Made by a program: the position numbers and the translations under genes. DNA of 64,000 nt from a virus. The notes below the pieces were generated by a model. The model was not told the origin of the DNA, made no database searches, and saw nothing but the letters and a program-made list of their open reading frames with translations. The stretch is taken from IMG/VR virus record IMGVR_UViG_3300007535_000003, positions 1 through 64,000 of that record. One strand, 5' to 3'. Positions 3,584 through 54,920 of the stretch are shown here, one piece after another (within the stretch, counting starts at the first letter, position 1; each line of letters starts with the position of its first letter).

Positions 3584-4519
3584 TTAGCTAAAATTCCTCA
3601 GTTGTTGTTGTTGATTAAGATTCTGCATAAACTTCTCCCCTTCATTTATCTTAGGGATAAGTCTTATCCAACTGTTCTTAAGTGACTCTAGTTCATCTAT
3701 AGATTTAGGACCTACAGATTTACCATACGCCTGTTTGACATAGAAGCGCCATTTACTGGCAGCGTGTACATATATTTCTTTATCCTTTAGCTCACCTCGT
3801 ATCCATTGCAAATAGAATATCTTAGTAGCTATATACCAAAAGATAGCATCTATAAAGCTTTGATTATCTGATACCATTGGATAACCATAGTAGTCTAAGG
3901 GGATGGCTAGGTATGAAATCATCAAGTACCCAGTCTTAACATTAGTTTTAATATACCCTGGTACTATCTTATACTCCAACAAATCTGTATTAACTGTACC
4001 CCCATCACTAGACATTTGTATTACCCCCTCATCTAGTAAAGTCCTTAATATAGATTCAGTTTCTTCGTCAGTATTAAGCTTTGTCACTGCTTCTTCATAG
4101 GTTAAATCAAATAACCTCATAGTAAGATCTATAAGGTCTGATGTGGCTACATTACTTAAGTCTACAGCCCCATCTAAATGCTCATGGTCTATATCTTTAG
4201 TTAGACCATAATTACCTGAGAAACTGCCCGAAGCATACTTCATTGGATAGAAGTTATCAGAACTCTCTTCTAGAGCATATGCAACTTGAATTACCTGTTT
4301 ACAGTCATACGGTAAAGGAGCTTGGTAATCTGTTATTTTCTTTAGTGGTACACCAGCTTTACCTGTAACCTTTTGTACATAAGAATTTGGGGCTTCTATC
4401 TTCTCTAAAGCTTCTGCAGCCCATTCAACCATATCGTTTATAGGTACATCAGATTCACCTAAGCCTAAATCTGCATATACTTTAGATATGATACTCTTCA
4501 ATGATATTAAATTATTCAT
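3584..4519 (-). CDS. Tail ring/tubular protein (P22 gp4-like)
   Basis: SIISKVYADL...EWAAEALEKI and ISYLAIPLD..GYPMV..FIDAIFWYI motifs; position next to the muzzle gene. Confidence 0.65.
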   Translation of the reverse strand: MNNLISLKSIISKVYADLGLGESDVPINDMVEWAAEALEKIEAPNSYVQKVTGKAGVPLKKITDYQAPLPYDCKQVIQVAYALEESSDNFYPMKYASGSFSGNYGLTKDIDHEHLDGAVDLSNVATSDLIDLTMRLFDLTYEEAVTKLNTDEETESILRTLLDEGVIQMSSDGGTVNTDLLEYKIVPGYIKTNVKTGYLMISYLAIPLDYYGYPMVSDNQSFIDAIFWYIATKIFYLQWIRGELKDKEIYVHAASKWRFYVKQAYGKSVGPKSIDELESLKNSWIRLIPKINEGEKFMQNLNQQQQLRNFS

Positions 4520-14916: not shown

Positions 14917-16434
14917 TTAAGCGAATGTTAAATGTATCTTTATTAAGTAATTTTCTGTAGTTAATGATGCTAATTCTACTTTACCATTGGTAGTGTCATT
15001 AGCTAGTTTAGTATATGCTGCGTCACCAACAAAACTTACATATGTATCAGGACTACTACCAGCTTTATACATAATCCTAGCATCGAATACAGGCCTATAA
15101 TTCCCATTAGAGTCAGTAACATTATGGTTTATAATTAAATCATCTGGATCATTTTGTGTTACTCCCCCGCTAGAACCATCAGTTAAAGTCCAACCATCTG
15201 GTTTAACTGGAGTTAAAGAAAGCCTACCAGAGACAGTAGTAGCTGCATCTAATTCTATTTCAAATACTTGACCAGCAGCTGTCTCATCTTGTGTATATGG
15301 TACACCTGATAGATTTAAGTCCCAACTAGAATGACTTGTAGAACCTGTTATATGGGTTATAGTGAGATCTATAGTAGTATTACCAGCATAACTTGCTACT
15401 TCAGCATAAAATTTAGCTGTATTAGAATTGGCTACTGTTAGTACCTGACCTACTGTATAACTCATACCACTATCAGCAATGTTCATAGTAAACGTACTAC
15501 CAACTGATTTAGCTGATAGATCTATAGTATCTGTACTTGTTGTAGTATATAATGCCCCGGTTAGTGTACTTATTTGAGACCAAGTAGTAGTACCAGAAGC
15601 CTTATAATGTACACTATTATCATCAGTATTTATATAGTAAGTATCATATGTTTGGCTAGTAGTATTTGTAGGAGCCCCAGACCCATAAGTCCATTGATCC
15701 CCGTCTATGCCATCACTACCATCAGCTCCTGCAGCTCCATCTTCAACTACAGTCTGCCAAGCAGCCCCATCATATACATATGATTTATTATCTGTAGTGT
15801 TGTAATAAGCATCATTCTCTGAAGGACTTAAAGGATGACTAGATGCATCTGCAAGCCAATTAAGTGATATACCTTGAGGCCCTGTATCTCCAGTATCACC
15901 TGTAGCTCCTTTGATATTACCTATAGTGGACCAAGACCCGGAAGATTTTTTATATAAATCGTATGTATCAGTATCTATATATAGATCCCCATCATTACCC
16001 CCTGTAGGAGCCCCAGAACCTGTGGTTATAGTAGCACCATCAGTACCGTCAGTACCATCAGCACCATTGTATACAGGAAAGGTATCTGTAGAACTATCAG
16101 AATAAGTAATAGTATATGTATCAGTAGTACCTGCACTACCATCGCCAGATGTCTTGCTAACATCTGTTATACTTACACCCTGAGCTCCTGTGTCGCCTTT
16201 AAGACCAGTGTCGCCTTTGTCACCCCTGTCACCTTCAGGCCCTTGTGGTCCTTCAGGACCTATGGGACCAGAAGTAGTACCAGTAGGGGAATAATAAACA
16301 ATGTCCCACTCATAAGAGGAGACATAATTAGATTCATACTGTACAGCTTGATTTATATCATCTATATCTATGTTACTCGTAGGAACGCCATAATTATAAT
16401 TAGGCTCTGTAGTACTAACTACTATAACACTCAT
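14917..16434 (-). CDS. Collagen-like tail fibre protein
   Basis: Gly-X-Y runs (GPIGPEGPQGPEGDRGDKGDTG) and GSGAP..G..GDLYID motifs. Confidence 0.8.
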   Translation of the reverse strand: MSVIVVSTTEPNYNYGVPTSNIDIDDINQAVQYESNYVSSYEWDIVYYSPTGTTSGPIGPEGPQGPEGDRGDKGDTGLKGDTGAQGVSITDVSKTSGDGSAGTTDTYTITYSDSSTDTFPVYNGADGTDGTDGATITTGSGAPTGGNDGDLYIDTDTYDLYKKSSGSWSTIGNIKGATGDTGDTGPQGISLNWLADASSHPLSPSENDAYYNTTDNKSYVYDGAAWQTVVEDGAAGADGSDGIDGDQWTYGSGAPTNTTSQTYDTYYINTDDNSVHYKASGTTTWSQISTLTGALYTTTSTDTIDLSAKSVGSTFTMNIADSGMSYTVGQVLTVANSNTAKFYAEVASYAGNTTIDLTITHITGSTSHSSWDLNLSGVPYTQDETAAGQVFEIELDAATTVSGRLSLTPVKPDGWTLTDGSSGGVTQNDPDDLIINHNVTDSNGNYRPVFDARIMYKAGSSPDTYVSFVGDAAYTKLANDTTNGKVELASLTTENYLIKIHLTFA

Positions 16435-16951
16435 TTATATAAGGATTTTTGCATAAATTCTGTAATGACAGTAATATGCGTTTGATTTCAGTTATTTGTC
16501 CTGCAGCTGCTGAATACTCCATAGACTTAAGGTAAGTGAACATAAATATAGCACGTTGTACGTAGCTATTACTGCATACATTACAGTTATGAACATCAGG
16601 TACTAACCTCAGTATATTATAAGTACACAACCTCACATTATAGTCTAACAGTGTATTATATGTTACTTTATCTTCATTAGTCGCATTGTATTCTACTTTG
16701 TATACACCGTCCATAAATTTATCACCAGACTGCCCTACATCACTAGGTTTAACATCTATATAATCACCTATACTCCAATCTCCACTGCTATCTACGTCGG
16801 TACTATCTGCTGAAAGATCCAAACTGTAAGCAGTATCATCCCAAGTTACTGACAGACTAGCCCCAGTTAAATTAGTATCAGCATCAGAAGCTTCTGTAAT
16901 TCTAAAGGTCTCCCCGTTATCTATTTGTTCAAATGTTAATTTTAACGCCAT
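16415..16951 (-). CDS. Tail hub-like structural protein (putative)
   Basis: DGVYKVEY plus Cys-rich C-terminus; precedes the fibre genes. Confidence 0.45.
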   Translation of the reverse strand: MALKLTFEQIDNGETFRITEASDADTNLTGASLSVTWDDTAYSLDLSADSTDVDSSGDWSIGDYIDVKPSDVGQSGDKFMDGVYKVEYNATNEDKVTYNTLLDYNVRLCTYNILRLVPDVHNCNVCSNSYVQRAIFMFTYLKSMEYSAAAGQITEIKRILLSLQNLCKNPYINECYSS

Positions 16952-17586
16952 TATTTTTTAGGTTTCTTAGTTAAATCCATAATAATATCTTCTATAGAGT
17001 TTATATCGTGTTTAAATGCTTGTTGTCTAACCTCTTCAGATTTTAAAGTTAGTTCATTTGAGATAAGATAAGAAATTTTCGCATCAAAGTCACATTCAAA
17101 ACCCATGTGCTCTAAATTATTATTCTCCCTCCACTCTTTATCTACATATAAAAATGTCCAATCACATATACTCCTAGTATGAGTTGGATCACCGTATGCT
17201 CTTATAGAAGAATAATATGGAGAAACTATCTTAATTTTTCCATCCGGTTTTAATATCCTATATACTTCATTGAAAAATTTTATAAGACCATCCATTGGAT
17301 ACAAAAACTCTTCCTTATTTACCTTCTCCTTAAATTCTTCAAAACTATTAGACTCATTAACTATCTTTTGCAAATCTGTTGCTACATTAGTATGCGGTAT
17401 ATGTTCTATGTAGTGTCCACAATATATCTCTTCAGCACTATCCGATTCTATCGGCCAAGGAAACTTTTGCAAATTTACTACATAATCAGCAGAATCTGTA
17501 TTACTTATATCTATACCTACAAACCCTTCCTTTTTATTATTACCACACGCAAGATCTAATTTTGGTTCGTTTATTAATTTCTCCAT
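16951..17586 (-). CDS. Class I SAM-dependent methyltransferase
   Basis: KLDLACG motif I; HYIEHI; EVYRILKPDG; DPTH. Confidence 0.85.
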   Translation of the reverse strand: MEKLINEPKLDLACGNNKKEGFVGIDISNTDSADYVVNLQKFPWPIESDSAEEIYCGHYIEHIPHTNVATDLQKIVNESNSFEEFKEKVNKEEFLYPMDGLIKFFNEVYRILKPDGKIKIVSPYYSSIRAYGDPTHTRSICDWTFLYVDKEWRENNNLEHMGFECDFDAKISYLISNELTLKSEEVRQQAFKHDINSIEDIIMDLTKKPKK

Positions 17587-27324: not shown

Positions 27325-30300
27325 TTATCTTAACCGGTTAAAATTATATTTTCTATCTTCAGTGAAAAACCTAGTTTGAAAGAACTTATCAATAGTTTTC
27401 TCACTCCTTTTCTTATCCTTAACATGTACATTATGTAATTCTTTTTTATACAACATTACCATCATTAATGAAATTACTCGGTCAAAGTTGCCCTTATCGT
27501 TATAAGATATTAACTCATCTAACAATGGTAATGAGAATATTTTCTCCAAATTCTTATGGCCTGGTGAATATTCTTCATTAAGCCAATCTCGTATTTCTCG
27601 TTCAGCCCAATCTTTTATACCTTTAGTCATATGAATACCCTTCTTACGTTGTACCTTAGATACTTGCACAATGTCATGTATAATATCAGGCTGATTAGCT
27701 AACATATAATCAACACCCTTATTAGCAAAATAAGCGTACATACCTTTACGCTCATTCTCGTATAAAGCCCTTGCATTATAGTATTTAAGTAGCCTGTAGA
27801 CATTTTCATAATACTCATTAGCCGTATCTGGTCTACCTGTATATTCAGCTACTATTATATCATAGTACTGTTCAAATGACTGAAATCTTTTATATATAAT
27901 AGTGCTCCCTAAAGAAGAAGTACCAGAATCATCATGGTCATAAGGGTCAATACCAGCTATATATAGACCATACGGAGGATCTTCAACAGGATGCTCCCAT
28001 ATAACTATAGCCCCTTCTTTGCTATCATTTTTATCTAAAGGAAACTTCTCTATATCTTTAGCTCCAGATAGCTGGTTCCACCTTAGTCTACCAGCCCCAT
28101 CATACTCAAGACTACCCACCTGTTTATAGTTTTTCAGCTTCTTATCCCCCATTATCCTAGCTTTCTGTGCCTGTAGTTCTTTCTTAGGGAATATATTACC
28201 AGTCAACTGTAAGGTAGCTTCTCTAGGCGTATTTGGGTGTTCCGCAATATACCTATCTACAGAATTCTTATCACCAGAATGCTCTTCTACCTCCTTACGT
28301 TGCCTATTAGATTCTTCTATAGCTTCATCTATTGAGGAATTACCATCCTCATTCATAAAGCCTTGCATATTCATATAGTTAGGTACAAAAAAGCCACATG
28401 CTGTTTCATAAGCACCATCATCCCATACATTCCTTATAGGTAGAACATTATAAGCCCTAGGTTTATAAAACAACTCTTTTAAGCTAGAATAGTCTGCCTC
28501 TTCTGTATTATGCGTAATTACACCATTACCTAAATAAGTATTAGTATTTGAAGCTGTTAAATTATAAACAGGATTAATACCAGTATGTTTAATAGATATA
28601 ACTTTCTCATGCCTTAGTCCATTATATTTTCTTTGGGGTTTTTTGTCTTTATTATAATCCCAAATATTATTTAATTTTTCTTGCTTATTTTTTATAAGTA
28701 AATTAAAATTTTCAACAAACAAAGTTAAACTTCTACAATCACTGATATTAAATTCATGCCAAGCATTGACATCTTTTGGATTATTATCTCTAGGTTGCCT
28801 GGTTCTTAATTTACCATGTATGCCAAATTTTTGTAATATTAGTTGTAACTCTTTTAATATCTCTAAATTATTTTGGCTCAAACTTATTTCAGATAAATAT
28901 TTACCTTTTCTTTTATTATTTACTCTAAAACTTATATACCCATCAGCATCATACAATCCAGCAACAAACTCTGAAATAGATTTTTTATTCCATTTATGTA
29001 CATCTTTTGGCAATCTTTTATCAGATTTAGTTTGTCCAAATATACCATGATATCTAAGAGTATCATTAAAGTTTAATATACCAGCTTCTTTATATATTCT
29101 CTTATCTTTATTTTCCCTCTCTAAATATACAGCATTGGAATAATTATCATCTATATAATCCCAAAGCTCTTTGTCACAATTAGCAAATTTAGGAGTACTA
29201 TTACCATAAGTACCATCCCCTACTAGCATGCCTAATAGTCTAGCGTCTTCTACCTCTTTATCGCCAAATATTGGTAATTTGTCTATAACTGATATTAAAT
29301 CACCTTCAGCTATATTACCAGCTTCTTTCCAGTCATGTCCTATTATTCTTCTATTCTGCCTTTTGTGATATTTATTCCATCCTTTATCTTTAAATATTGG
29401 AGAATAAATAGGATGATCCGTACTGCACTCTATTGTTCTACCAGAATCAGTAGTTAATTTAATAGTTTCTTTTTCAGTATATGGTTGTTGATAAGCTATA
29501 TCTTCTTTACTATAATTACCAGACATTTCATCAAAACCAATTATACCTTCATTTTTAACTAAATCTTCTATATTTATTAATTCACCTTTATTATTAAATA
29601 CTTTGTTCCCAGCTGTTAAACAACCTCCCGTACCAAAAGAAATCATTGTACCAAAAGCCACACCATCCTGTTCTACCGAAGGTTGAGCTATCTGCCACGA
29701 TTGAAGCAAATTTGGAAATTTACCTGATTCTTCCCAGACAATTAGTTTAGCTGCTTTACCTCTAGCTTTTTGAGGATCATTCTTTAGAGTAACACCTATA
29801 ATTTCAGATTTATATCCCTTCTCTATTTTACTGCCTCCCTTAGTAGTATAGAAAGAAGCCCTTCTATGCATATTGGTGTCTATTGCTTGTCTCTTCTTAG
29901 TCCAAGCTGTATTATCATCTATCCAACTCATCATATCCCAAGCCTTGGACAGTACACCATCTTTCGTTAAAAATTCCTTTTCTGAGGCTATAGCATAAGA
30001 TATCGATTCGGGTATAAGGAAGAAATTTCTATTCAACATTGCAGCAACTTTATACGAATAACCTGACCTACGCTTTTTAAGCACAGCCATATGACTACCC
30101 CTATTTTCTGCTTCTTCTACTGCGTCAAAATACTCCTTATCATAGTCCCAGAAATTTGGAAATCCCCTGTCCCTAGTAGGTATAACCTTAGTACCACCAC
30201 TACCATCAGGAACTTCTTTCTCAACTACTTTCATTATGGGGCAATAATTTAAATAAAAATAGTGATAGCCTGTAATACTATCACCATCTTCAGCAGTAAA

Positions 30301-30465
30301 GCCATCGGTACTACGTTTCATTTCTCTGTCCCAATAACGCTTATATTCTGTAGTACCTGGGGGAGCTGCAGTATACATGCTGTTTTCTTCAAAATACTTA
30401 GCAGCTGGCCTAAATTTATCAGTATTTTTAAATTTTCTAACCCTTACTTCGTATGTATCTTCCAT
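27325..30465 (-). CDS. terL: Terminase large subunit containing an intein
   Basis: LKKRRSGYSY Walker A-like, VWEESG Walker B, YIAGIDPYD nuclease, NFDRV. Confidence 0.93.
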   Translation of the reverse strand: MEDTYEVRVRKFKNTDKFRPAAKYFEENSMYTAAPPGTTEYKRYWDREMKRSTDGFTAEDGDSITGYHYFYLNYCPIMKVVEKEVPDGSGGTKVIPTRDRGFPNFWDYDKEYFDAVEEAENRGSHMAVLKKRRSGYSYKVAAMLNRNFFLIPESISYAIASEKEFLTKDGVLSKAWDMMSWIDDNTAWTKKRQAIDTNMHRRASFYTTKGGSKIEKGYKSEIIGVTLKNDPQKARGKAAKLIVWEESGKFPNLLQSWQIAQPSVEQDGVAFGTMISFGTGGCLTAGNKVFNNKGELINIEDLVKNEGIIGFDEMSGNYSKEDIAYQQPYTEKETIKLTTDSGRTIECSTDHPIYSPIFKDKGWNKYHKRQNRRIIGHDWKEAGNIAEGDLISVIDKLPIFGDKEVEDARLLGMLVGDGTYGNSTPKFANCDKELWDYIDDNYSNAVYLERENKDKRIYKEAGILNFNDTLRYHGIFGQTKSDKRLPKDVHKWNKKSISEFVAGLYDADGYISFRVNNKRKGKYLSEISLSQNNLEILKELQLILQKFGIHGKLRTRQPRDNNPKDVNAWHEFNISDCRSLTLFVENFNLLIKNKQEKLNNIWDYNKDKKPQRKYNGLRHEKVISIKHTGINPVYNLTASNTNTYLGNGVITHNTEEADYSSLKELFYKPRAYNVLPIRNVWDDGAYETACGFFVPNYMNMQGFMNEDGNSSIDEAIEESNRQRKEVEEHSGDKNSVDRYIAEHPNTPREATLQLTGNIFPKKELQAQKARIMGDKKLKNYKQVGSLEYDGAGRLRWNQLSGAKDIEKFPLDKNDSKEGAIVIWEHPVEDPPYGLYIAGIDPYDHDDSGTSSLGSTIIYKRFQSFEQYYDIIVAEYTGRPDTANEYYENVYRLLKYYNARALYENERKGMYAYFANKGVDYMLANQPDIIHDIVQVSKVQRKKGIHMTKGIKDWAEREIRDWLNEEYSPGHKNLEKIFSLPLLDELISYNDKGNFDRVISLMMVMLYKKELHNVHVKDKKRSEKTIDKFFQTRFFTEDRKYNFNRLR
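28507..29622 (-). mobile_element. Intein with LAGLIDADG endonuclease (372 aa) in TerL
   Basis: Starts GTGG|CLTAGNKV and ends GVITHN|TEE (Thr +1); CSTDHPI block B; LLGMLVGDG and FVAGLYDADG motifs. Confidence 0.93.
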
Positions 30466-36581: not shown

Positions 36582-36882
36582 TAAGTACTGATAACTAAAT
36601 TGAGTACTATCAGATCTGAAAGTTTAGTCCAAATTTGGACTGTCTGAAGTATGTTGGCATATCCCCAAATAAAGCCATATAAGCTGTTTATAGTCTAAAT
36701 AGACCTGTAGTACCTAAACTACCCTATGAAGGCTTTAAATCGCTTAAAAAGGGCATTTATGGGCAAATGAGGGAGAGTGTTATAGGTCGTCTAAACTCAC
36801 GCCTCAATCAGCCCTAATTTCACATAATCAATAACCCAACCTATATAATACTAATAGCTATAAACCACAAAAATATACAACT

Positions 36883-37266
36883 ATGAATAAAATTGAATTA
36901 ATTGGAAGAGGTACAATAATTAACATTGATGATATTAATTATTGTATTGAATCTCACAGCCATAATGACCCTGAATTAACAAGCTCAGTCTATCCCAGTA
37001 GGTACCTTTGCGTATTTGTCATTAAAGATGGGATAAAGTTTAGGATAGGATATATTAACTACAACGAACTAACCTGGTTTGATACACAAGCAAGGGAACA
37101 ACTTATAGAGCATCCTAGTGATATAAAACAAGTTACTGTTATTAATGTCTTAAATTCGGTAGAGTTTAGTGTAAAAAGACTCCACACACCTTTACATGAA
37201 TTTGATAGGCTGGATGAAGAGAACAGGGAAATGGTATTTGAAAGATTAGTTGACACTGAACTTTAA
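36883..37266 (+). CDS. Hypothetical early protein
   Basis: ORF preceded by the motif. Confidence 0.6.
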   Translation: MNKIELIGRGTIINIDDINYCIESHSHNDPELTSSVYPSRYLCVFVIKDGIKFRIGYINYNELTWFDTQAREQLIEHPSDIKQVTVINVLNSVEFSVKRLHTPLHEFDRLDEENREMVFERLVDTEL

Positions 37267-37277
37267 ACCACAAAACT

Positions 37278-37758: not shown

Positions 37759-37786
37759 ATACTATTAACTACAAAACTATAAGATT

Positions 37787-38308: not shown

Positions 38309-38363
38309 ACTAAACCACAAAGCTACAAAGTTATAAATAAGTTAAATTAAACCACAAAATAAA

Positions 38364-38606
38364 GTGATTGAAAAAGGATTAGAAAGACTTAATAATCGTA
38401 AAGCCAAGCTTCTCAGGGATAGGGAAGCAATCAGTACAGGTAGAATAGTATTTAGGAATAATAGGTTGTTAAACAACAAAAACTACAACCCATTGTTTGC
38501 AGAAGAATACAGATTCTCCCTCATCAGCTACATTGACAAGAAAGTAGTGGAAATTGATGAAGAGATTGCAAAAAGTGAAGCTCCCCAGTTAGGTATGGGG
38601 AGCTGA
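38364..38606 (+). CDS. Hypothetical early protein
   Basis: GTG start after the motif. Confidence 0.5.
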   Translation: MIEKGLERLNNRKAKLLRDREAISTGRIVFRNNRLLNNKNYNPLFAEEYRFSLISYIDKKVVEIDEEIAKSEAPQLGMGS

Positions 38607-38630
38607 TTATTAACCACAAAATATAGATGT

Positions 38631-39872: not shown

Positions 39873-39957
39873 GTAGATCTATTCTGACAGATACGCGCTC
39901 ATTGAGGGTGGGATCTACCTGTTTATCTTATACAATAAACCACAAAAATTAAGTAAG

Positions 39958-40578
39958 ATGAAAAAAAACTTTAACAAAGAAATAGACATACTTAGACAGC
40001 TTCTCATATATAAGGAAAACTGTCAGTACGAAATGAGCTTAAGACAGCCGATAGGTGACGGACCTATGGCGCTTGTAAGTAGAGCCAGGTATGTTACAGG
40101 GTATATGTCTACAAGGTGGTTTGATCTATTTGACATATACAAAGAGTTACAACTAACAGTTGGTTGGAATTTAAGTGATTTATTAAGTAAAAGCATAATT
40201 GACTTAGGATGTGGAACAGGATTACTTGTAGACTTATTCAGCATAATATTTAAGAAAACTTATGGAATAGAAGCTGATTGGAATCTTTGTAAGATAGCTA
40301 CAATAATGAGGCCTCATCTAGAAATATACAATGGATATGTACAGGAAAGAGTAGACTTAATACTCAGGTTAGATCCTGACATTATTTATGCTTTTAATAT
40401 CACAGGTGAACCAAGAGAAACATTTGATGAGTTATTCAGGAAGATGCGCAAGGGACAAGTATTTGTACATCTAGGGGGCTCAACAGAGATAGAAGAGTTA
40501 ATAGATGAACACAAGTTTAATACATCTAACAAAGAGGAAGATAGGCAATCAGCCAGAGTACTGATAGCTATTAAATAA
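39958..40578 (+). CDS. Class I SAM-dependent methyltransferase
   Basis: IIDLGCGTG, YGIEAD. Confidence 0.8.
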   Translation: MKKNFNKEIDILRQLLIYKENCQYEMSLRQPIGDGPMALVSRARYVTGYMSTRWFDLFDIYKELQLTVGWNLSDLLSKSIIDLGCGTGLLVDLFSIIFKKTYGIEADWNLCKIATIMRPHLEIYNGYVQERVDLILRLDPDIIYAFNITGEPRETFDELFRKMRKGQVFVHLGGSTEIEELIDEHKFNTSNKEEDRQSARVLIAIK

Positions 40579-40596
40579 AACCACAAAATTAAAAAT

Positions 40597-40725
40597 ATGG
40601 ATTGGGAACAATCAAGAGACGAAGATAGAGAATTTGATCCTAATGATGGACAAGATATCTACGGATGCATACTAGGAGCAATTATGTGGATAGCACTAAT
40701 AGCACTAGCGATTTTCTGTAGATAA
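40597..40725 (+). CDS. 42-aa membrane peptide
   Basis: Acidic N-terminus plus TM (GCILGAIMWIALIALAIFC); motif upstream. Confidence 0.5.
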   Translation: MDWEQSRDEDREFDPNDGQDIYGCILGAIMWIALIALAIFCR

Positions 40726-40845
40726 ACCACAAAAATGAAATTGTTAAAAATATAGAGAGATCTTGGAGCCCAATCAGGGCTATCGGCGACGACACGGTGG
40801 TAACCAGCCCATACAGCAGTCGTACTTCAGGTCTCCCTAACTTAT

Positions 40846-40965
40846 GGTCCGTTCGTCTAGTGGTAGGACGCCGAGCTGTTAATACTTTATACATGCACTA
40901 GCTATGTTAGAGTATCAACCATGGTTTGCCCCACGGAAACGGAGGTTCGACTCCTCCACGGACTG
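40846..40965 (+). tRNA. tRNA-like RNA (Glu/Asp-type body) with the anticodon arm extended into a long hairpin
   Basis: Acceptor GGTCCGT/ACGGACT; D-arm GTCTAGTGGTAGGAC; T-arm GGAGG-TTCGACT-CCTCC; about 45-50 extra nt in the anticodon arm. Confidence 0.7.
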
Positions 40966-41163: not shown

Positions 41164-41198
41164 CTATTTTTATTTACAAACCACAAAAATTAAATATT

Positions 41199-41366
41199 AT
41201 GTCAGCATTAATTGCATTCCTTGTAACAATGGCATTCCTAAGTTTAATGGGCTATGCCTTATTACCTTACGGGACTAAGGAGGAAGCCTCAACGAGAAAA
41301 GTAGTAGGTATTGTAGCAATTTTAGCTACAGTAGTAATACTAATATTAACTTTAATAATATCCTAA
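41199..41366 (+). CDS. Small two-TM membrane protein
   Basis: Likely start ATG 41199 after the motif. Confidence 0.55.
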   Translation: MSALIAFLVTMAFLSLMGYALLPYGTKEEASTRKVVGIVAILATVVILILTLIIS

Positions 41367-41630: not shown

Positions 41631-42074
41631 ATGTGGAAATCTAACTCAAAGCAAAGCAAAGACAAAATAAGTAAGGGCAGTTTAGTAATTATTGACATGC
41701 CCGACTTTATTGGAGAATATGTACCTTCAATAAGTAAGGTAGCGTGTAGCTACAAAGAAAAGATGCTACATTTCTCTAATGTTAGCAATGCTTTTGGTAG
41801 CTTATTTGGTGAAGAACACCATTTAATAGAAGTACCAAGAGCAGTCATACTCTATAACAAGACACATTTTCTTAAGAGTGTATTAGAGCTATCTGAAGCA
41901 TATAAAGAAGATAGCTTAGATTCTTTATTCTTTTACGGTCGTAAAATAGTACTACCAGTCCATGAGGGATACTTAATGCCGGTAAGTAAAATAAAGGATC
42001 CACACAAAAGAGGACTATGTTATAGAGAATGGGAAATGTTAAAGACTAAGGGATATAGTAACCTTATAACCTAA
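41631..42074 (+). CDS. Hypothetical protein
   Basis: ORF in operon. Confidence 0.55.
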   Translation: MWKSNSKQSKDKISKGSLVIIDMPDFIGEYVPSISKVACSYKEKMLHFSNVSNAFGSLFGEEHHLIEVPRAVILYNKTHFLKSVLELSEAYKEDSLDSLFFYGRKIVLPVHEGYLMPVSKIKDPHKRGLCYREWEMLKTKGYSNLIT

Positions 42075-42135
42075 CTTAACTAACAAACGATTTACTTACG
42101 CTGCTAGCTAGGGCTTTAGCGGACTCGGGTTCGAT

Positions 42136-42756
42136 CAAAAGGTCGAAGTTAAACTGGGTGAATTCAGGGAAACCTAAGTCACAATGATAAGGCAACCCTG
42201 AGCCAAGCCCTTAAGAGGGAAGGTGCAGAGACTACCTGAATACAGGCTAGAGCGCCCAGCACTTAAAAGTGAAGAGATAGTCCGATACTCCTGAGAAATT
42301 AGGAGAAGAAGCGAGATGTAAATTCTTGACGTTTTGATAAGGTTTCTTTTGTATATTTACCATTACGAGGTGTTATACTCTTCAATTCGTTAAGTATCAT
42401 ATCTATACGTCTACGCTTCTTGGGATGTCTGGAATTTATGTAAGATAGTACGTTTATACATTTAGGTAAATAAGTATACCTCAGCTCATAATTAGTAAAA
42501 TCACCTGATTTTTTAGTACAAATGAATCCATTATGACCTGTTTCAAGTTTAATAAATTTTTCTATTTCCACAAGTAGGTCATATTCGTTATTACTAAAAG
42601 AAATAACAGGTGATCTTTCGCAATTCTTATGTAAACGTAAAAATGTTATCGTGCCGTCAGCATCAAAGAAACCTGTAATATATTCCCAACCCATATTTTT
42701 ATTGAATATACGGACGCAGGTTTGAAATGTTACTGTTCCAGATGTTTTAACTATTG
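42136..42756 (+). mobile_element. Group I intron in the tmRNA T-loop
   Basis: P1 TTCGAT|C-AAAA-GGTCGAA with U:G at the splice site; P3 CTGGGTG/CGCCCAG; P4 TTCAGGG/CCCTGAG; GCAGAGACT and AGATAGTC (P7); P9 CTCCT/AGGAG; terminal G at 42756. Confidence 0.9.
42299..42694 (-). CDS. Single-motif LAGLIDADG homing endonuclease, antisense inside the intron
   Basis: WEYITGFFDADGTI; TPRNGKYT; lies in the intron 3' (P9) region. Confidence 0.88.
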   Translation of the reverse strand: MGWEYITGFFDADGTITFLRLHKNCERSPVISFSNNEYDLLVEIEKFIKLETGHNGFICTKKSGDFTNYELRYTYLPKCINVLSYINSRHPKKRRRIDMILNELKSITPRNGKYTKETLSKRQEFTSRFFS

Positions 42757-43219: not shown

Positions 43220-43768
43220 ATGGATAACTTATTTAGGAAGACACTACTCCAAGATCTTAAAGATCAATATTTGGAGTTACGGAAAGACTTCTTTAGGGCT
43301 AAAAAAAGAGGCAACAAAAGGGAAGCAAATTCCCTGCGAGAACAGCTTTCAACACTTTCCGCCTTAATCGGAGAAATTGAGAATATGGAAAAGAAGAAAG
43401 CATCATCCAGCTTTGAAGGAGACAAAAAGTACTTAAGGAAATACTTATTTGATACACTAACTGCTTCTTTGACTGAATCCAAAGATAGTCGTAAAGGTAG
43501 ACTTTTCAGAGATAAGTGTATCAACGAAGTTGCAACTATAACGAAAGCTTCTCATAAGCACTTGTTTGAAGAAGATGATAAGTTAAGTCCAGAAGAGGCG
43601 TATAATATCATTAATACGCTTAGTAAGTTTGGTATGAAGGAATTCAGGGAAAGAATCAGTGAAGCAAGAAAAGACGACAGGGGTAGAGACAGAATTGTCA
43701 AGTTTGTCTTTTCAAATTCACCTGAAGATCGAAATAAAATCGATATGGTGATTAAGAAAGTTCTATAA
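43220..43768 (+). CDS. Hypothetical protein
   Basis: 182-aa ORF. Confidence 0.65.
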   Translation: MDNLFRKTLLQDLKDQYLELRKDFFRAKKRGNKREANSLREQLSTLSALIGEIENMEKKKASSSFEGDKKYLRKYLFDTLTASLTESKDSRKGRLFRDKCINEVATITKASHKHLFEEDDKLSPEEAYNIINTLSKFGMKEFRERISEARKDDRGRDRIVKFVFSNSPEDRNKIDMVIKKVL

Positions 43769-43789
43769 ACCCTGAAAAAACCGATTAAA

Positions 43790-44848
43790 ATGAACAAATA
43801 CAATGCTTCTGCATCGGAATTATTTGATGCAGCCGAATACTTTTACAAAATGGCTGTCCGTTTTGAAGACAGGTATTGGAATCATGGCAACAACCAAAGT
43901 GATATGAGTGCCATGCATATGTACAAACTGAAAGCTGCTGAAGCTGAAAGCTACGCTGAATTGCTTATTCAAGAGGGGTTAAGCAATACCCTAGGATTTG
44001 GTCCTGAATGGATTAAAAAGAATTTTGTAGCTCTTAATCCAGCTAATATTAAAAGTGAGGTAAGTAAAGCTAAAGAAGCTGGTAAAAGTGAAATCCCTAA
44101 TGCTGAAATAGTTAATGATGAAGCTGAATTCATTAGCAAAAAAGTAGGTATGAAATTACGGGAAGAAGAAGCAGCTGTACTTAGCAAAAAAAGGCAAATA
44201 CGTGAAAGTGAACCTCCATTTGTAACTAGCTTACGTTCTGAAATTATAGAACTACTTGAAAAAGGTCTAAGGGGCGAATTGGTTACATTATTAACTAAGT
44301 TCCATTTTAGGGATGTTGAATATCCTGCAGAAAGAGCTTACAGGTTTATCAACTTAGTTAAAGAGCAATTCAATATATTAGAACCCTCAAGTTCTTTAAA
44401 AGAAGCTAAAACAGCCAGAAGGGTAGCTGAACTAAAAACTCAGCTGCTTAATAAAAAGAGAAGAGAATTCAGGAAAAAGTACACTAAAAAGCATGGTAAA
44501 TTGCCTAAGCCCGAATTACTCAATGCTATACAACTAAGCGATCAGGAAATAGCTCCTTTAGTTGAAAAAGCTAATAAATGGGGCACAGAAAAGATACCTG
44601 TAAATACCTATGTTTATGCTAGATACACGGTACATAATTGTAATGGTGTAGATGTAGAAGAGGGCTATGCCAAAAGACATAAGAATAAGCCTAATGAGCT
44701 ATGGCATAGCAATAGGTTTGTATGCTTCTTAAGTGATGTAGAGAAGTGGAGACCTATCTACGATATCATTCACAACAAAGAAAGGGAGATGAAGTGGTAT
44801 TTCAATAACAACCCTGTATCAGGCAAATATCAAAGAAATAAAGTTTAA
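43790..44848 (+). CDS. Hypothetical protein
   Basis: 352-aa ORF. Confidence 0.7.
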   Translation: MNKYNASASELFDAAEYFYKMAVRFEDRYWNHGNNQSDMSAMHMYKLKAAEAESYAELLIQEGLSNTLGFGPEWIKKNFVALNPANIKSEVSKAKEAGKSEIPNAEIVNDEAEFISKKVGMKLREEEAAVLSKKRQIRESEPPFVTSLRSEIIELLEKGLRGELVTLLTKFHFRDVEYPAERAYRFINLVKEQFNILEPSSSLKEAKTARRVAELKTQLLNKKRREFRKKYTKKHGKLPKPELLNAIQLSDQEIAPLVEKANKWGTEKIPVNTYVYARYTVHNCNGVDVEEGYAKRHKNKPNELWHSNRFVCFLSDVEKWRPIYDIIHNKEREMKWYFNNNPVSGKYQRNKV

Positions 44849-44863
44849 CCTAAGTAACATATT

Positions 44864-45388
44864 ATGTCAAAAAGTAAAAAAGAAAGAAACACTTCACACG
44901 ACGCAATAGAGTTAATACTCGTAAGCGTGCGTATCAACGAGCTCAGGAGCTTAAGGTTACGGTTATTTAACGACATTTATTTAATACGTTCAACCTGTCA
45001 AAACTCCAAGTTTACAAGAGCTTCTAGTACTATCAACAATATGAGTTTACTCATAAGCGAGATAGATGCTAGAAGAAAAAGCTTAACAAGGAGAAGTAGA
45101 TCCTTGATGGTAAGAATGATTAAGCTAACCAATAAAACATTTCAAGAAAAACCATCAGAGCTAGTGCCCTTACACAATAAAGATATTGAAACTGGGTATG
45201 TAGAACTGACGGAAGTAACTGAACAAGGTGAACTTATACCCCATTTACTACTACTTGATAGTGGTAAAATAGAACCAGCTAACAATGTAAGAGCTAAACA
45301 GATCATGGCAAGAGGTCCCAGCTATACCGGGTTCACCTTCGATAAAATAAAAGCCTTGGCTATAATGTCTGAAACCTGGCCAAGGTAG
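44864..45388 (+). CDS. Hypothetical protein
   Basis: 174-aa ORF. Confidence 0.65.
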   Translation: MSKSKKERNTSHDAIELILVSVRINELRSLRLRLFNDIYLIRSTCQNSKFTRASSTINNMSLLISEIDARRKSLTRRSRSLMVRMIKLTNKTFQEKPSELVPLHNKDIETGYVELTEVTEQGELIPHLLLLDSGKIEPANNVRAKQIMARGPSYTGFTFDKIKALAIMSETWPR

Positions 45389-45390
45389 CA

Positions 45391-46690
45391 CATAATATTT
45401 TTTGTGGTTTGAGTCGATTTAGGTGCGAGCCTATTTCGGCTTCAATTTTTGTAGCAGTTCTTGAGAGAACCTTCACCCTACCGCCTTTGGATTCGGCAAT
45501 GTTGGGAATACCAAGGACAATGCCTACTACCTATTAGCTACTCAATATCTACAAAACTACTCTCCTTATGAAGTATCCTAGGAAGATGGGTTCCAATTAT
45601 TGATTTAAGCGCACTCTGAGGAACTGGCAGACCCGATGGATACATTAAGGTAAATAGGTCTAACGCAACCCATGGTCAAATCCGTACTCTTAAGTGTGTG
45701 GGTATTACCCTTAAGAGCTTATGCATGCTCGCACTTCCCTTTACGAAAAGGTTGAACTAAGAAGTAACTGAATACGGGGCTGTATATACTGTATACAGTG
45801 GGGCTGGAAACACCAGAAGACTACGATGATGCTACCTAGTAAATAGGCCAAGTGAACACTTAACTTTGAATTAAGTTAGTAACGGGGGGTCCAAATTCCT
45901 TAGAGTCGTTGTATAGACCTTGAGTACCGAGTACAGAGTAGATAATTTATCCCCCAGTAAAGTGGTGTAGTTCAAGCCGCAGTAGCGAAATATGAACTGT
46001 CGTCTGTGATTTCGGCTGGGGTAAGAGGAGGAGGGATGGATACGTGTGCTTCACCGTTTGTATGGTAAGAAGCTACATGTTATACGCCCTAGCCAAGATC
46101 TGAAGCATGAATCGTCAAGTTGGGGCTTAGGAATAAGTTTGATAAATAGCCTGCGATAGGTCGCAATCCCTATCAGTTTCAACCATCGAGTAATGTGGAG
46201 GATACATACATCAATGAGGCGGTAATGCCGCCCAGTATCATGGTAGTGCGCTTTATAACTGATGCAGCCATTTCCAGTTATATTTGCTTGGAGCTACTTA
46301 TGATGCGATACTCTGTAGGACAGAGGGTCTTTAAACTTAGCAGGTAACCGTAAGTGTGGAGAACAAAGTTAAGTCCCTAGAGTAGAACAGACCTCTAACA
46401 GTTCTACAAAATTCAAATAGTAAACAAGGGTTTACAACGGAGCCGTTAGGCTGTTGTATAATATATACCCAAATAAATGTCAGTGTATTTCTTGCCTAAC
46501 CACAGCAAGAGACTGACTAATAGTGACTATAAGAGTATTAAGCTAAGGAGGTTGTGAGTGGATGTGGTTCATGAGGTACCAAGTGCATTTTAAAAGCTTG
46601 GGTGGATGACTTCATTGAATCATAGCTTAATATTAAGTAAGGAAATAGGACTGGGGCTTAAGAAAGTCCCAGCTCCCCAGTCCTTTTAAA
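45391..46690 (+). ncRNA. Large structured non-coding region (one or more ncRNAs)
   Basis: 1.3 kb without a 60-aa ORF in any frame; GC-richer; many hairpins, GNRA loops and long-range complementarities; ends in a terminator at 46647-46687. Confidence 0.65.
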
Positions 46691-46700
46691 CTATTAAAAA

Positions 46701-47015
46701 ATGAAGGTAAAAAAGTATAAATATCTAATACCTATAATAAGCATAAAAGCTGAAGGTACCTTAGTACATTTGATACAGCGCAATATTCTGTACAAAGCTA
46801 AAAAAGTACTAGGGATCAAAATACCAATAGAAAAGATCTTTCAAAAAGACAGGGGGATCTCAGCTTGGAAAGAGACAGCGGGTCATAAGCAGACTAAATG
46901 GAGAATAGTCTACATAAAAGATGAAGATAATAACATCAGATTAGGGCCCGTTATTCAAGACAAGAAACTTTTAAAGTTTTTAAACAAGATTACTAACCAA
47001 AATTATGCAAAATGA
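46701..47015 (+). CDS. Hypothetical basic protein
   Basis: 104-aa ORF. Confidence 0.55.
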   Translation: MKVKKYKYLIPIISIKAEGTLVHLIQRNILYKAKKVLGIKIPIEKIFQKDRGISAWKETAGHKQTKWRIVYIKDEDNNIRLGPVIQDKKLLKFLNKITNQNYAK

Positions 47016-47549: not shown

Positions 47550-47972
47550 ATGGCTAAAAGCAAAAAGAAAGTACAAGATGAAGTACAGGAACAAGAAACT
47601 GCAACTACAGTGGAAAATGAAGCTACAGAAGCTTCTGGTTCAGACAACACCCAAACTGCTAACGCTGAGGATGATACGGTCTTTGGTACGGTAGTATGGA
47701 ACGACAAAAAGAAGAAAGGATTTGGTTTTATCCAGATGGATGGTGAAAAGCAAGAAGAAGGTAATGATATCTTTATGCACCATTCCCAAATTATGGCTTA
47801 CAAAGATGGTAAGGTACCAAATCTTGAAGCTGGTGATAGGGTATCCTTTATACTTGTAGATCCCCCGGAGAGCAATAGCAAACAAAAACCTATTGCTTCT
47901 GAAGTAGTTCTCGAGGAAAAAGCTCCCAAAGAGGATAAACCCAAAGAGGAAAGCAAATCTGAAAATAAGTAG
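47550..47972 (+). CDS. Cold-shock domain (CspA-like) protein with acidic extensions
   Basis: GTVVWNDKKKKGFGFI (RNP1), DIFMHHSQI (RNP2), LEAGDRVSF. Confidence 0.85.
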   Translation: MAKSKKKVQDEVQEQETATTVENEATEASGSDNTQTANAEDDTVFGTVVWNDKKKKGFGFIQMDGEKQEEGNDIFMHHSQIMAYKDGKVPNLEAGDRVSFILVDPPESNSKQKPIASEVVLEEKAPKEDKPKEESKSENK

Positions 47973-52531: not shown

Positions 52532-52984
52532 ATGGTAATTTGTGTAATTGATAAAACTCACAGTAGAAGTAAAGATTTATATGAAAGATTGAAAGAGGAG
52601 TATACTGAAGGTAGGGTACTCTATTTAGCTTCTATCGATAAGGTAGAAGAAGTCGCTACGATGCTAAAGATGTCAAAGAACTTTGGCTTAGCTAAAGAAG
52701 TAGAAAAAATTTGGCAAAGTTATAACGAAGCTATAGCAGATAATATCATAGACTATATTAAACATTTTAAGAACGAAGAAGATATAGTACTAGTCAATGT
52801 AACAAGTGAAAAGGATAGAGCTCTGTTTGTTGAAAGATGCTCATTTGATGTGCATTCTATATTCTTGGAAGGAGCTCCTAAGAGCTACATACATGACACT
52901 GTACTAAACATAAGGATGAATATGACTTTACAAACTAGTAAGTACGATGATATATCTGCTAACAAAGAAGAAAGTACTGTTTAA
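52532..52984 (+). CDS. Hypothetical protein
   Basis: 150-aa ORF. Confidence 0.55.
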   Translation: MVICVIDKTHSRSKDLYERLKEEYTEGRVLYLASIDKVEEVATMLKMSKNFGLAKEVEKIWQSYNEAIADNIIDYIKHFKNEEDIVLVNVTSEKDRALFVERCSFDVHSIFLEGAPKSYIHDTVLNIRMNMTLQTSKYDDISANKEESTV

Positions 52985-54920
52985 AGATGGTGATATTAAC
53001 TACAGTACTAAAATATCAGAGGTTATATCTGATTTAAAGGAACAGAAAGTAATTGCCCTAGATATAGAAACTAATGGATTTGATACCTTGACTAACAAAG
53101 TATTAATGCTCCAGTTAGGTACTAGAGAAGGTAACCAATATGTTATAGATTCTAGGGATTATGATATAAGTAAATTCAAGGAAATATTAGAGGATAGTAG
53201 TAAAGTATTTGTAGGCCATAATATAAAGTTTGATTATAATTCCTTAAAGAAGCACAATATAGTATTAAGTAGGGTATATGATACTATGCTGTCAGATATT
53301 GTAATATATAACGGCTATTACTCTAAAGATTATATTAAGAAAAACAAGAGATTCTCATTAGCAGGTGTGTACAAACATCACTTTAATAAAGCCATTGAGA
53401 AAGAAACTAGGGATACTTTTAAAACAATAGGCAGCACACCATTTAGCTACTCTCAAGTACTCTACGGAGCTAATGATGTTAAGTACCCATTAGAGATAAT
53501 GAAGGTTCAAAGAAATTTACTAAATGAATTTGATTTGGTAGAATGTGCTAAGTTAGAGAATAAAGTTACTTTGGCTTTAGCTGATATAGAGTATAATGGT
53601 TTTTATCTCAATAGGGACAAGTGGGGAAAAGTAGCTAAGGAGTATAGTAGAAAAGTTAAGGAAACTACTGACAAATTAGATAGAATACTGATAAGTAAGG
53701 ATAAATCATATAAGAAAAAGTATTACCAAAAAGATTTATTCGATGAACAGTATGAAGATAAGAGGTTCACAGTAGTTAATTGGGATAGTCCCCAACAGGT
53801 ATATGAAATATTAACAAATGTATTTGACATATATCTTGTAGATAAGCATGGTAAACCTTCTACTAGTACTAAAGCTATAGAATATTTAACAAGTACCCAT
53901 GAAATTACTGATAAACTATTACAATATAGGCAAGAAAGTAAGGCTTTAAATGCTTTTGGGGAAAACTTTGCTAGAGATTCTACAGATAAGGAAGGTAGGA
54001 TACACACTAAATTTACTCAAATTGTGGAGACTGGTAGAGTTAGTTCTAGCAAACCTAATTTACAACAGATTCCTAGCTCTAAATTATTTAGGGAATGCTT
54101 TGAAGCCCCTAAAGGTAGGAAGATAATTACTGCAGACTATAGTACTCAAGAGGGCCGTATTATGGCTGATCAGTCCAAAGATGAAGCTTATGTAGATTTC
54201 TTTAAGAATGGGGGCGGTGACGCCCACAGTTTTGTAGCAACTAAGATGTTTTCAGCTAAATTTGGTAAAGAATTCATAGTAACTAAGTACAATGAGAATA
54301 AGGAGTATAGACAACAAGGTAAGAAATTAAACTTCTCTATATCTTATGGTGGTACTGCCTTTTCTTTATCAAAGAGTTTGAAGATATCGGTGGAGGAAGC
54401 TCAGGAGCTCATAAACGCCTTTTTTAGAGGATTTAAGCAACTCAAAGAGTATTTTGATACTAACTCCCGTTTCGGCCTAAACAACGGCTATATTCGCACT
54501 AATACGATCACTAAGCGTAGGAGGTGGTTTCAAGAATATGAAGATTATTTAGTGTATAAGGAAAGAGCTAATCAGTCTGATAGATCTTTAGATTATTATA
54601 AGAGGTATAAGACTCTAGAGGGATCTATTGGTAGGAAGTCACAAAATACACCTGTTCAGGGTACTGCAGGGGATATGACTAAACAAGCTTTAGTGTATAT
54701 TAGGGATAAACTATTAGAGAACGGTGTAAAACCACTGTCTAGTGCTGAAGCTAAGTTGGTTAGTGTGGTACACGATGAATGTAGCTTAGAGGTAGTAGAA
54801 GGTAAAGCTGAATTCTACGCTAAGATACAAAGGGAAGCTATGGAGAAAGCTGCTAATCTACTCACTGAAGATCTAGATATTCCTGTAGATCAAGAGATAG
54901 GAGATCATTGGTCTCATTAA
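52947..54920 (+). CDS. polA: Family A DNA polymerase with 3'-5' exonuclease
   Basis: ExoI LDIET, ExoII GHNIKFD, TGRVSSSKPNLQQIP, motif A ADYSTQE, motif B RQQGKKLNFSISYG, motif C VHDE. Confidence 0.95.
   Translation: MIYLLTKKKVLFKDGDINYSTKISEVISDLKEQKVIALDIETNGFDTLTNKVLMLQLGTREGNQYVIDSRDYDISKFKEILEDSSKVFVGHNIKFDYNSLKKHNIVLSRVYDTMLSDIVIYNGYYSKDYIKKNKRFSLAGVYKHHFNKAIEKETRDTFKTIGSTPFSYSQVLYGANDVKYPLEIMKVQRNLLNEFDLVECAKLENKVTLALADIEYNGFYLNRDKWGKVAKEYSRKVKETTDKLDRILISKDKSYKKKYYQKDLFDEQYEDKRFTVVNWDSPQQVYEILTNVFDIYLVDKHGKPSTSTKAIEYLTSTHEITDKLLQYRQESKALNAFGENFARDSTDKEGRIHTKFTQIVETGRVSSSKPNLQQIPSSKLFRECFEAPKGRKIITADYSTQEGRIMADQSKDEAYVDFFKNGGGDAHSFVATKMFSAKFGKEFIVTKYNENKEYRQQGKKLNFSISYGGTAFSLSKSLKISVEEAQELINAFFRGFKQLKEYFDTNSRFGLNNGYIRTNTITKRRRWFQEYEDYLVYKERANQSDRSLDYYKRYKTLEGSIGRKSQNTPVQGTAGDMTKQALVYIRDKLLENGVKPLSSAEAKLVSVVHDECSLEVVEGKAEFYAKIQREAMEKAANLLTEDLDIPVDQEIGDHWSH

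Follow-up and report, generated by a model that had tools for sequence, protein, structure and literature searches.

Why should a short word that precedes the start codons of a cluster of early phage genes occur once more in reverse, directly beside a hairpin and kilobases downstream of the genes that carry it? The question is raised by the 64,000-nt stretch of DNA analyzed here (the window), which corresponds to bases 1-64000 of an IMG/VR virus record that is 97,237 bp long and estimated to be 94% complete. The portal, terminase and major head protein were identified via PHROG matches, and the major head protein shares 60-63% identity with its counterparts in gut crAss-like phages, the listed hosts of which are Bacteroides, Flavobacterium and Cellulophaga. 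The phage is crAss-like and, because of this affiliation, its host presumably belongs to the Bacteroidota. The public runs that contain DNA of this phage are soil metagenomes, with a small share in one salt-lake run and no others, and blastn searches of INPHARED in the near and distant modes yielded no match. Leftward virion genes fill the window from 1 to 35188, and rightward genes extend from 35790 on. The landmarks of this neighborhood are the following.

27325-30465, minus strand: ORF of 1,046 aa, the C-terminal part of which matches the crAss-type large terminase; residues ~330-550 give weak primase-like or helicase-like PHROG matches and may represent a fusion or an insert
40846-40965: match to the tRNA model over 120 nt, a tRNA-like gene with a large insertion for which ARAGORN makes no call
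42011-42305, plus strand: Rfam group I intron match (97 bits)
42299-42694, minus strand: ORF opposite to the group I intron match, with weak, sub-threshold LAGLIDADG matches
47550-47972, plus strand: cold-shock-domain protein, possibly an RNA chaperone or a binder of U-rich RNA, located ~0.85 kb downstream of the ORF-free region described below and 46% identical to its homologue in the closest relative (G001)
52947-54920, within the rightward genes: family A DNA polymerase
genome 69495-91778, minus strand, beyond the window: one ATG-to-stop frame of ~7,400 codons (own ORF script)

The word in question, an 11-base leader box with the sequence AAACCACAAAA, consists of A and C only and lacks the SD core AGGAG. 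It is present in seven exact copies on the plus strand, whereas 100 dinucleotide shuffles yield a mean of 0.05 copies and a maximum of one. Copies with one mismatch are found at 38312, 38471 and 38611, and variants at 37767 and 39525; the copy at 38471 lies inside an ORF and is probably not a site. When the near-copies at 38312, 38611, 37767 and 39525 are included, there are ~10 plus-strand boxes within 4.3 kb (36.8-41.2 kb), among them the following.

36862..36872, plus strand: exact box, 10 nt before ATG 36883, preceded by the conserved 19-mer TATATAATACTAATAGCTA
37265..37275, plus strand: exact box that shares bases with the stop of the upstream gene; ATG 37278 follows after 2 nt
37767..37777, plus strand: variant box AACTACAAAAC, 9 nt before ATG 37787
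38349..38359, plus strand: exact box, 4 nt before GTG 38364, with the one-mismatch copy at 38312 lying 37 nt upstream
38611..38621, plus strand: one-mismatch box TAACCACAAAA, 9 nt before ATG 38631
39937..39947, plus strand: exact box, 10 nt before ATG 39958; the gene is weakly methyltransferase-like (sub-threshold match)
40578..40588, plus strand: exact box that shares bases with the upstream stop; ATG 40597 follows after 8 nt
40724..40734, plus strand: exact box directly before a mere 6-codon ORF, which is followed by the tRNA-like region
41178..41188, plus strand: exact box downstream of the tRNA-like element, 10 nt before ATG 41199

All ten cluster copies (10/10) are intergenic and sense-oriented, the spacer to the start codon (ATG or GTG) is 0-10 nt for eight copies, and in several cases the box overlaps the TAA with which the preceding gene ends. 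The tagged genes encode products of 42-206 aa without any Pfam family above the curated cut-off. On the minus strand, there is a single exact copy, at 45410..45400, where the shuffles give 0.05 expected; the full record holds the same eight exact copies and none further, and the only other minus-strand copy with at most one mismatch, at 68503, falls within a coding region. A preliminary description of this DNA had interpreted positions 45391-45450 as a candidate antisense small RNA directed at the start regions of about ten early genes. Its premises, namely that the box recurs close to early start codons (seven exact plus-strand copies and three to four near-copies), that only one antisense copy exists, and that this copy is co-directional with the early genes, are borne out by the genome-wide strand count.

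Other rightward genes carry looser relatives of the box (TAACCA, AAACC, CTAAAC) in G-poor leaders, and the box is best described as the most sharply defined version of an A/C-rich leader style that is general here. This style fits the SD-independent initiation of Bacteroidia, which start translation without SD pairing, via unstructured A-rich leaders (PMC6847099). A second, looser set of leader words (CTAACCA, ACTAAAC) is found downstream of the early cluster, at 43220, 47012, 48004, genome 67103, 47550 and 50006, and the closest relative has the leader word AACTAACTA at four genes. The 19-mer that precedes the first box, at 36842-36860, contains TATAAT and is identical to positions 73-91 of a related metagenome contig (L056, see below), that is, in both lineages that carry the box; it could serve the early unit as a promoter or start signal.

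The reverse copy opens a compact element located at the end of the 43220-45388 gene block, with the following components.

44864..45388, plus strand: 174-aa gene just upstream of the reverse copy, its stop ending 2 nt short of the anti-leader, with a homologue at the same position in the G001 lineage
45391..45410, plus strand: anti-leader block CATAATATTTTTTGTGGTTT, with the exact complement of the leader box at 45400-45410
45409..45446, plus strand: hairpin capped by GCGA (a GNRA loop), directly after the anti-leader
45444..45454, plus strand: T-run AATTTTTGTAG, which confers a terminator-like look in the window phage only
45389..46700, plus strand: ORF-free stretch of 1,312 nt, headed by the anti-leader and ending in the hairpin 46648-46690 and a T-run

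The anti-leader block is intergenic and begins 3 nt after the TAG codon (45386-45388) of the upstream ORF. The hairpin is strand-specific, with a folding energy of -16.5 kcal/mol (z -4.1) on the plus strand vs -7.4 kcal/mol (z -1.8) on the minus strand, where it is weaker because two G.U pairs turn into A.C mismatches. In the window, the hairpin is followed by AAUUUUUG, and the two together score as terminator-like; the T-run also matches the complement of the variant leader CTACAAAA in front of gene 37787, which is not significant alone. No plus-strand terminator is predicted between 43190 and 45410, so that read-through from the 43220-45388 block would put the anti-leader in RNA; upstream of it, there are only weak sigma-70-like matches. 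An Rfam 15 search over 45000-47000 returned three chance-level matches (E of at least 2.6), none of them on the element, and the DNA contigs of four soil and salt-lake runs offered no usable variation at the element. Among the public runs that contain 44800-47000, none is recorded as RNA. The possibility that the anti-leader is the start of a minus-strand gene was rejected: the leftward ATG at 45393 opens just 23 codons here, and there is no such ORF in G001.

The stretch behind the anti-leader contains stops in all six frames, has a G+C fraction of 0.416 vs 0.36 in the flanks, and is closed by a strong hairpin just before gene 46701. Additional anti-leader segments are not in excess within this 1.3-kb region (58 8-mer complements vs 43 in shuffles, maximum 72), and an intramolecular partner, the loop AACCACA at 46498, was rejected, being absent from the G001 lineage. 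ORF-free stretches of 0.9-1.3 kb are found at a similar place among the rightward early or middle genes of five related phages; the stretches of the relatives are these.

G001, ~2362-3261: ORF-free stretch
G002, 16685-17541: ORF-free stretch
G003, 16024-17221: ORF-free stretch
G004, 87309-88437: ORF-free stretch

Within the G001 lineage, conservation of the ORF-free stretch is roughly on a par with that of coding DNA, and one hairpin has undergone a compensatory change (CATG..CATG to CGTG..CACG). The stretch is a candidate for a long structured RNA, similar in kind to the abundant early non-coding transcripts of the crAss-like phage phi14:2.

Relatives were retrieved via the polymerase gene, which produced 24 loci, only one of which, G001, is close (polymerase 69% identical). 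Together with three metagenome contigs, L054-L056, it constitutes what we refer to as the G001 lineage. G001 is syntenic with the window: homologues of the 43790 and 44864 genes (30-36% identity) are followed by a gap of ~900 nt and then by homologues of 46701, 47012 and the cold-shock-domain protein 47550. The identity of the flanking proteins between the G001 lineage and the window is 28-36%. Scans with each of the two upstream proteins alone revealed no further relatives, and an alignment-based scan recovered G001 only from viral contigs and none from GTDB genomes. P0002 and P0003 are homologues of the upstream protein (52% and 44% identical, respectively). The DNA pattern TTTTTGTGGTTTRRGTCRAT matches G001 and one unrelated sequence that looks coding, and all 18 matches of the pattern TATAATACTAATAGCTA are unrelated.

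In the G001 lineage, TATTTTTGTGGTTT is kept right after the orthologous stop and is followed by the GCGA hairpin; in G001 itself, the sequence directly after this stop is CAATATTTTTGTGGTTTAGGTCAAT, and the hairpin next to it has the same GCGA loop. The shared core of the anti-leader, (A)TATTTTT(T)GTGGTTT, is the exact complement of the leader box with its A-run. Relative to the window, the basal stem of G001 shows at least two double compensatory changes, from G-C to A-U and from A-U to G-C, and also a change from U.G to U-A, and the apical stem differs in sequence and length. The rest of the G001 gap could be aligned with the window neither by blastn nor by MAFFT. The hairpins were misaligned by MAFFT as well. 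Contig L056, which extends 6.4 kb upstream, carries (T/A)AACCACAAA(A) 4-13 nt before five early ATGs as well as the anti-leader. The leader box, the anti-leader and the hairpin are co-conserved across this deep split. Because the box and the anti-leader are identical in both lineages that carry them, there is no covariation signal available, which counts against an RNA anti-leader; the identity was kept while the flanking proteins fell to ~30%, which argues that the element is functional.

The four more distant relatives G002-G005 (polymerase ~50% identical) contain neither the box nor its complement; they use AAATCAAA(ATG) leaders, and the syntenic ORF-free gaps of G002, G003 and G004 (0.9-1.2 kb) have no matching anti-leader at the head. 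That relatives without the box are also without the anti-leader counts for an RNA anti-leader. A separate observation concerns the minus strand of G002 (~3650-3740), where the last codons of a 51-aa ORF include TTTGATTT, the complement of the phage's own AAATCAAA leader word; near 3698, this complement stands directly before a GTAA-capped terminator hairpin on the leftward strand (rough chance ~0.03), a weak hint that a matched anti-leader may also exist in a distant relative. Between positions 191 and 515, L054 contains an extra small gene between two identical box-plus-leader repeats (AACCACAAAATCTTAAGA), and L055 (position 35) equals L054 minus the 307 nt between the two boxes. The comparison indicates that the boxes are recombination joints for the gain and loss of gene cassettes, so that part of the identity among leaders may reflect homogenization rather than selection.

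The preliminary description noted that the reverse complement of the anti-leader mimics an entire initiation region including the ATG; the anti-leader does resemble the 41178 leader in this way, ATATTATG included, but the ATG mimic is absent from the G001 lineage. Similarly, the GCGA hairpin that it described is genuine and is kept in the G001 lineage, but the T-run belongs to the window only, given that no U-run follows the hairpin in G001, L054, L055 or L056. The proposal of a discrete small RNA of ~60 nt with its own terminator is not supported: there is no U-run in the G001 lineage, and the element is the first part of an ORF-free region of 0.9-1.3 kb, so that these 60 nt do not make up a self-contained small RNA. 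What stands of the multi-target antisense reading is a complementarity that is far beyond chance, unique in the genome and conserved together with the box and the hairpin.

How strong would the pairing be? The predicted duplexes of the anti-leader with the eight box leaders range from -14.3 to -23.0 kcal/mol vs a median of -7.2 kcal/mol over 103 start regions, and these eight leaders give the eight best duplexes among the 103, a ranking that is expected because of how the targets were chosen. The leader targets are nearly unstructured (opening cost 0.4-3.5 kcal/mol), and the anti-leader costs ~5-6 kcal/mol to open in the window and ~3 kcal/mol in G001. Once these opening costs are subtracted, the net prediction for most targets is only ~ -6 to -9 kcal/mol, which is borderline and counts against the antisense reading. 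The best predicted target is the following gene.

41199..41366, plus strand: encodes a 55-aa peptide that has two hydrophobic stretches; the predicted duplex of -23.0 kcal/mol covers the AUG

For this leader, the net pairing, AUG included, is predicted at ~ -15 kcal/mol. The counterpart in the G001 lineage is a similar peptide of 58 aa, at the same position after the tRNA-like element.

In its revised form, the antisense-regulator reading is the best single explanation of these findings, one that we hold tentatively, at somewhat less than even probability: 45391-45446 would encode a conserved RNA anti-leader that pairs with the early leaders, above all with that of the 55-aa membrane-peptide gene. 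We infer the transcription of the element, its pairing within the cell and the regulatory outcome as follows. The element would consist of a largely single-stranded, U/G-only anti-leader (UAUUUUUUGUGGUUU) directly joined to the GNRA-capped hairpin on the rightward strand. It closes the 43220-45388 gene block and opens a 1.3-kb non-coding region whose RNA is probably structured. The anti-leader would be made once transcription reaches this block, as a 3' UTR, a processed fragment or the 5' domain of a long RNA. It would then pair with the leader boxes (AAACCACAAAA(A)) of about eight early mRNAs and block ribosome loading, with 41199 as the strongest predicted target, where the pairing runs over the AUG. 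Start choice in Bacteroidota rests on unstructured A-rich leaders rather than on the SD, so that pairing in the leader would be expected to block the loading of ribosomes.

The alternative that fares best assigns the function to the DNA. Here AAACCACAAAA would be a double-stranded site bound by a protein of the phage or the host, a stoperator-like roadblock or the site of a repressor, that ends early transcription, and the copy at 45400 would be one more such site, inverted and close to where the non-coding RNA unit begins. We regard this as unlikely, albeit with a substantial residual probability. A double-stranded site accounts for both orientations and for the conserved reverse copy without invoking RNA pairing, and one copy in G001 is not start-adjacent but lies ~80 nt from the next start, behind a hairpin and a T-run. 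The intergenic gaps are so short that nearness to start codons cannot separate an RNA role from a DNA role. The stoperators of phage L5 are asymmetric intergenic sites oriented with transcription and bound by a cognate repressor, and the 11-bp word resembles them in being short, asymmetric, restricted to intergenic gaps and present in one orientation; however, the L5 sites are spread across early and late operons, whereas those described here are confined to a single 4.3-kb cluster. Moreover, no cognate DNA-binding protein was recognized, the neighbors being without Pfam or PHROG matches, and the reverse copy abuts a strand-specific, GNRA-capped RNA hairpin with which it is conserved. The adjacency of such a hairpin to the reverse copy speaks for RNA. 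Should the operator nonetheless prove correct, the box would still define an early regulon and point to a repressor.

It is rather improbable that the element is a 3' end or stability element, or else a leftward relic, in which case the hairpin would end or stabilize the 43220-45388 mRNA and the box would be the remnant of an inverted cassette, with no pairing involved. The terminator-like score of the hairpin with AAUUUUUG in the window, the leftward layout (hairpin, box, 7 nt and ATG, like the plus-strand cassettes at 38611 and 39937) and the behavior of the boxes as recombination joints are all compatible with such an origin. However, an intrinsic terminator of the upstream operon, that is, a hairpin with a U-run within 0-2 nt, exists in the window only and is not conserved. 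In the leftward direction, the hairpin is weak in the window, and the ORF amounts to 23 codons and is missing from the G001 lineage. Above all, a neutral relic would not stay identical while the flanking proteins dropped to ~30% identity.

A promoter is an improbable explanation as well, although it supplies an alternative reason for the conservation and to that extent counts against an RNA anti-leader. Promoters recognized by the sigma-A factor of Bacteroidota have the consensus -7 TAnnTTTG with -33 TTTG. On this view, the block would be the -7 element, transcription of the long non-coding RNA would begin at the hairpin foot, and the match to the complement of the box would be a coincidence. 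G001, L054, L055 and L056 read TATTTTTG exactly, which matches this -7 word; the start predicted 6-8 nt downstream is the first base of the conserved hairpin, and the block heads an ORF-free region. The window word, TAnnnTTTG, is however one base too long, the -33 TTTG is absent upstream in either lineage, and the conserved GTGGTTT downstream of TTTG, which is complementary to the box, is left unexplained. The broader idea that all boxes are leftward promoters was rejected, given that the opposite-strand TAnnTTTG occurs in 1/6 boxes of the G001 lineage vs 5-6/11 in the window.

Finally, a lock in cis, in which the anti-leader would pair with the leader of gene 46701, close the non-coding region as one domain and mask the start, is highly improbable. 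In the minimum-energy fold of the whole region, the block does pair with the 15 nt that immediately precede ATG 46701 in the window, and with the 10 nt before the orthologous ATG in G001, both helices using G.U pairs. At -11.0 and -8.8 kcal/mol, however, the helices are weak and do not stand out from random leader pairings, among which 46701 ranks only ~20th of 103. A-rich leaders and U-rich blocks pair by default in long folds, and the long-range helix was rejected as not above background.

Returning to the RNA anti-leader, a generalization to crAss-like phages at large, in which early mRNAs carry a phage-specific, SD-independent leader box and a later-transcribed anti-leader RNA silences the whole early set, is possible but doubtful. 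If true, it would account for the single reverse copy that accompanies start-associated repeats. For the present phage, the proposal that a leader tag and its conserved reverse copy form an RNA switch for early protein synthesis is credible on sequence grounds. The combination of a leader tag with one conserved complementary RNA amounts to a concrete, testable hypothesis for early switch-off in phages that inject their own polymerase and are among the most abundant viruses of Bacteroidota.

The closest described pattern to the leader box is that of the start-associated sequences (SAS) of Cluster K mycobacteriophages, 13-bp asymmetric words located 3-7 bp before the starts of non-structural genes, often overlapping the upstream stop and nearly always in one orientation, with a single opposite-strand site in four phages (PMC3203893). 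These sites have been contrasted with the L5 stoperators, and an RNA or protein partner was listed as possible by the authors (Pope et al. 2011; PMC3203893). The box described here is likewise short, asymmetric, start-adjacent and in one orientation, belongs to the non-structural arm and has a single reverse copy. However, the SAS contain the SD core AGGAG and number ~13-20 across a genome arm, whereas the box is A/C-only, in a host phylum that ignores the SD, and occupies ~8-10 sites in one 4.3-kb cluster. To our knowledge, no RNA hairpin has been described beside the reverse copy of a SAS.

With respect to mechanism, the nearest precedents appear, by analogy, to be the c4 RNA of P1 and P7 and the multi-target small RNAs directed at ribosome-binding sites. 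The c4 antisense RNA of the immI operon is made from the same strand as its target, pairs with a phage translation initiation region and blocks ribosome access; RNase P excises it from the operon in which it precedes its only target, and the pairing is made by two loops. The proposed anti-leader would also be a same-strand phage RNA acting on translation initiation regions, but it lies 4-8 kb downstream of its targets and could reach about eight leaders via a linear stretch of 11-13 nt. In the C-rich loops of RsaE and RoxS and in the CcsR/Cuckoo RNAs, one repeated seed is complementary to many translation start regions and the target is the universal SD; the principle of one seed for many starts is the same, whereas here a phage-encoded RNA would target a tag specific to the phage, in a host that does not depend on the SD. 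In T4, the translational repressor RegA and the nuclease RegB shut off a set of early mRNAs post-transcriptionally via a shared feature of the start region. Their effectors are proteins, whereas the effector proposed here is an RNA, and silencing of the whole early set by an anti-leader would, if true, be the RNA counterpart of RegA and RegB.

Among crAss-like phages, phi14:2 has long ORF-free early stretches, the transcripts of which are more abundant than those of most genes and last throughout the infection (bioRxiv 10.1101/2020.03.07.982082). Three of its early genes share the leader word AACAAYTAAAAC, of which no exact reverse copy was found in that phage. Like the window phage, phi14:2 is crAss-like and has a long ORF-free stretch within its rightward early genes, but the two are distantly related, and their RNAs are compared by position and lack of ORFs, not by homology. 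The anti-leader hypothesis would thus link the SD-independent start choice of Bacteroidota, the SAS, described in 2011, and the non-coding RNAs of crAss-like phages.
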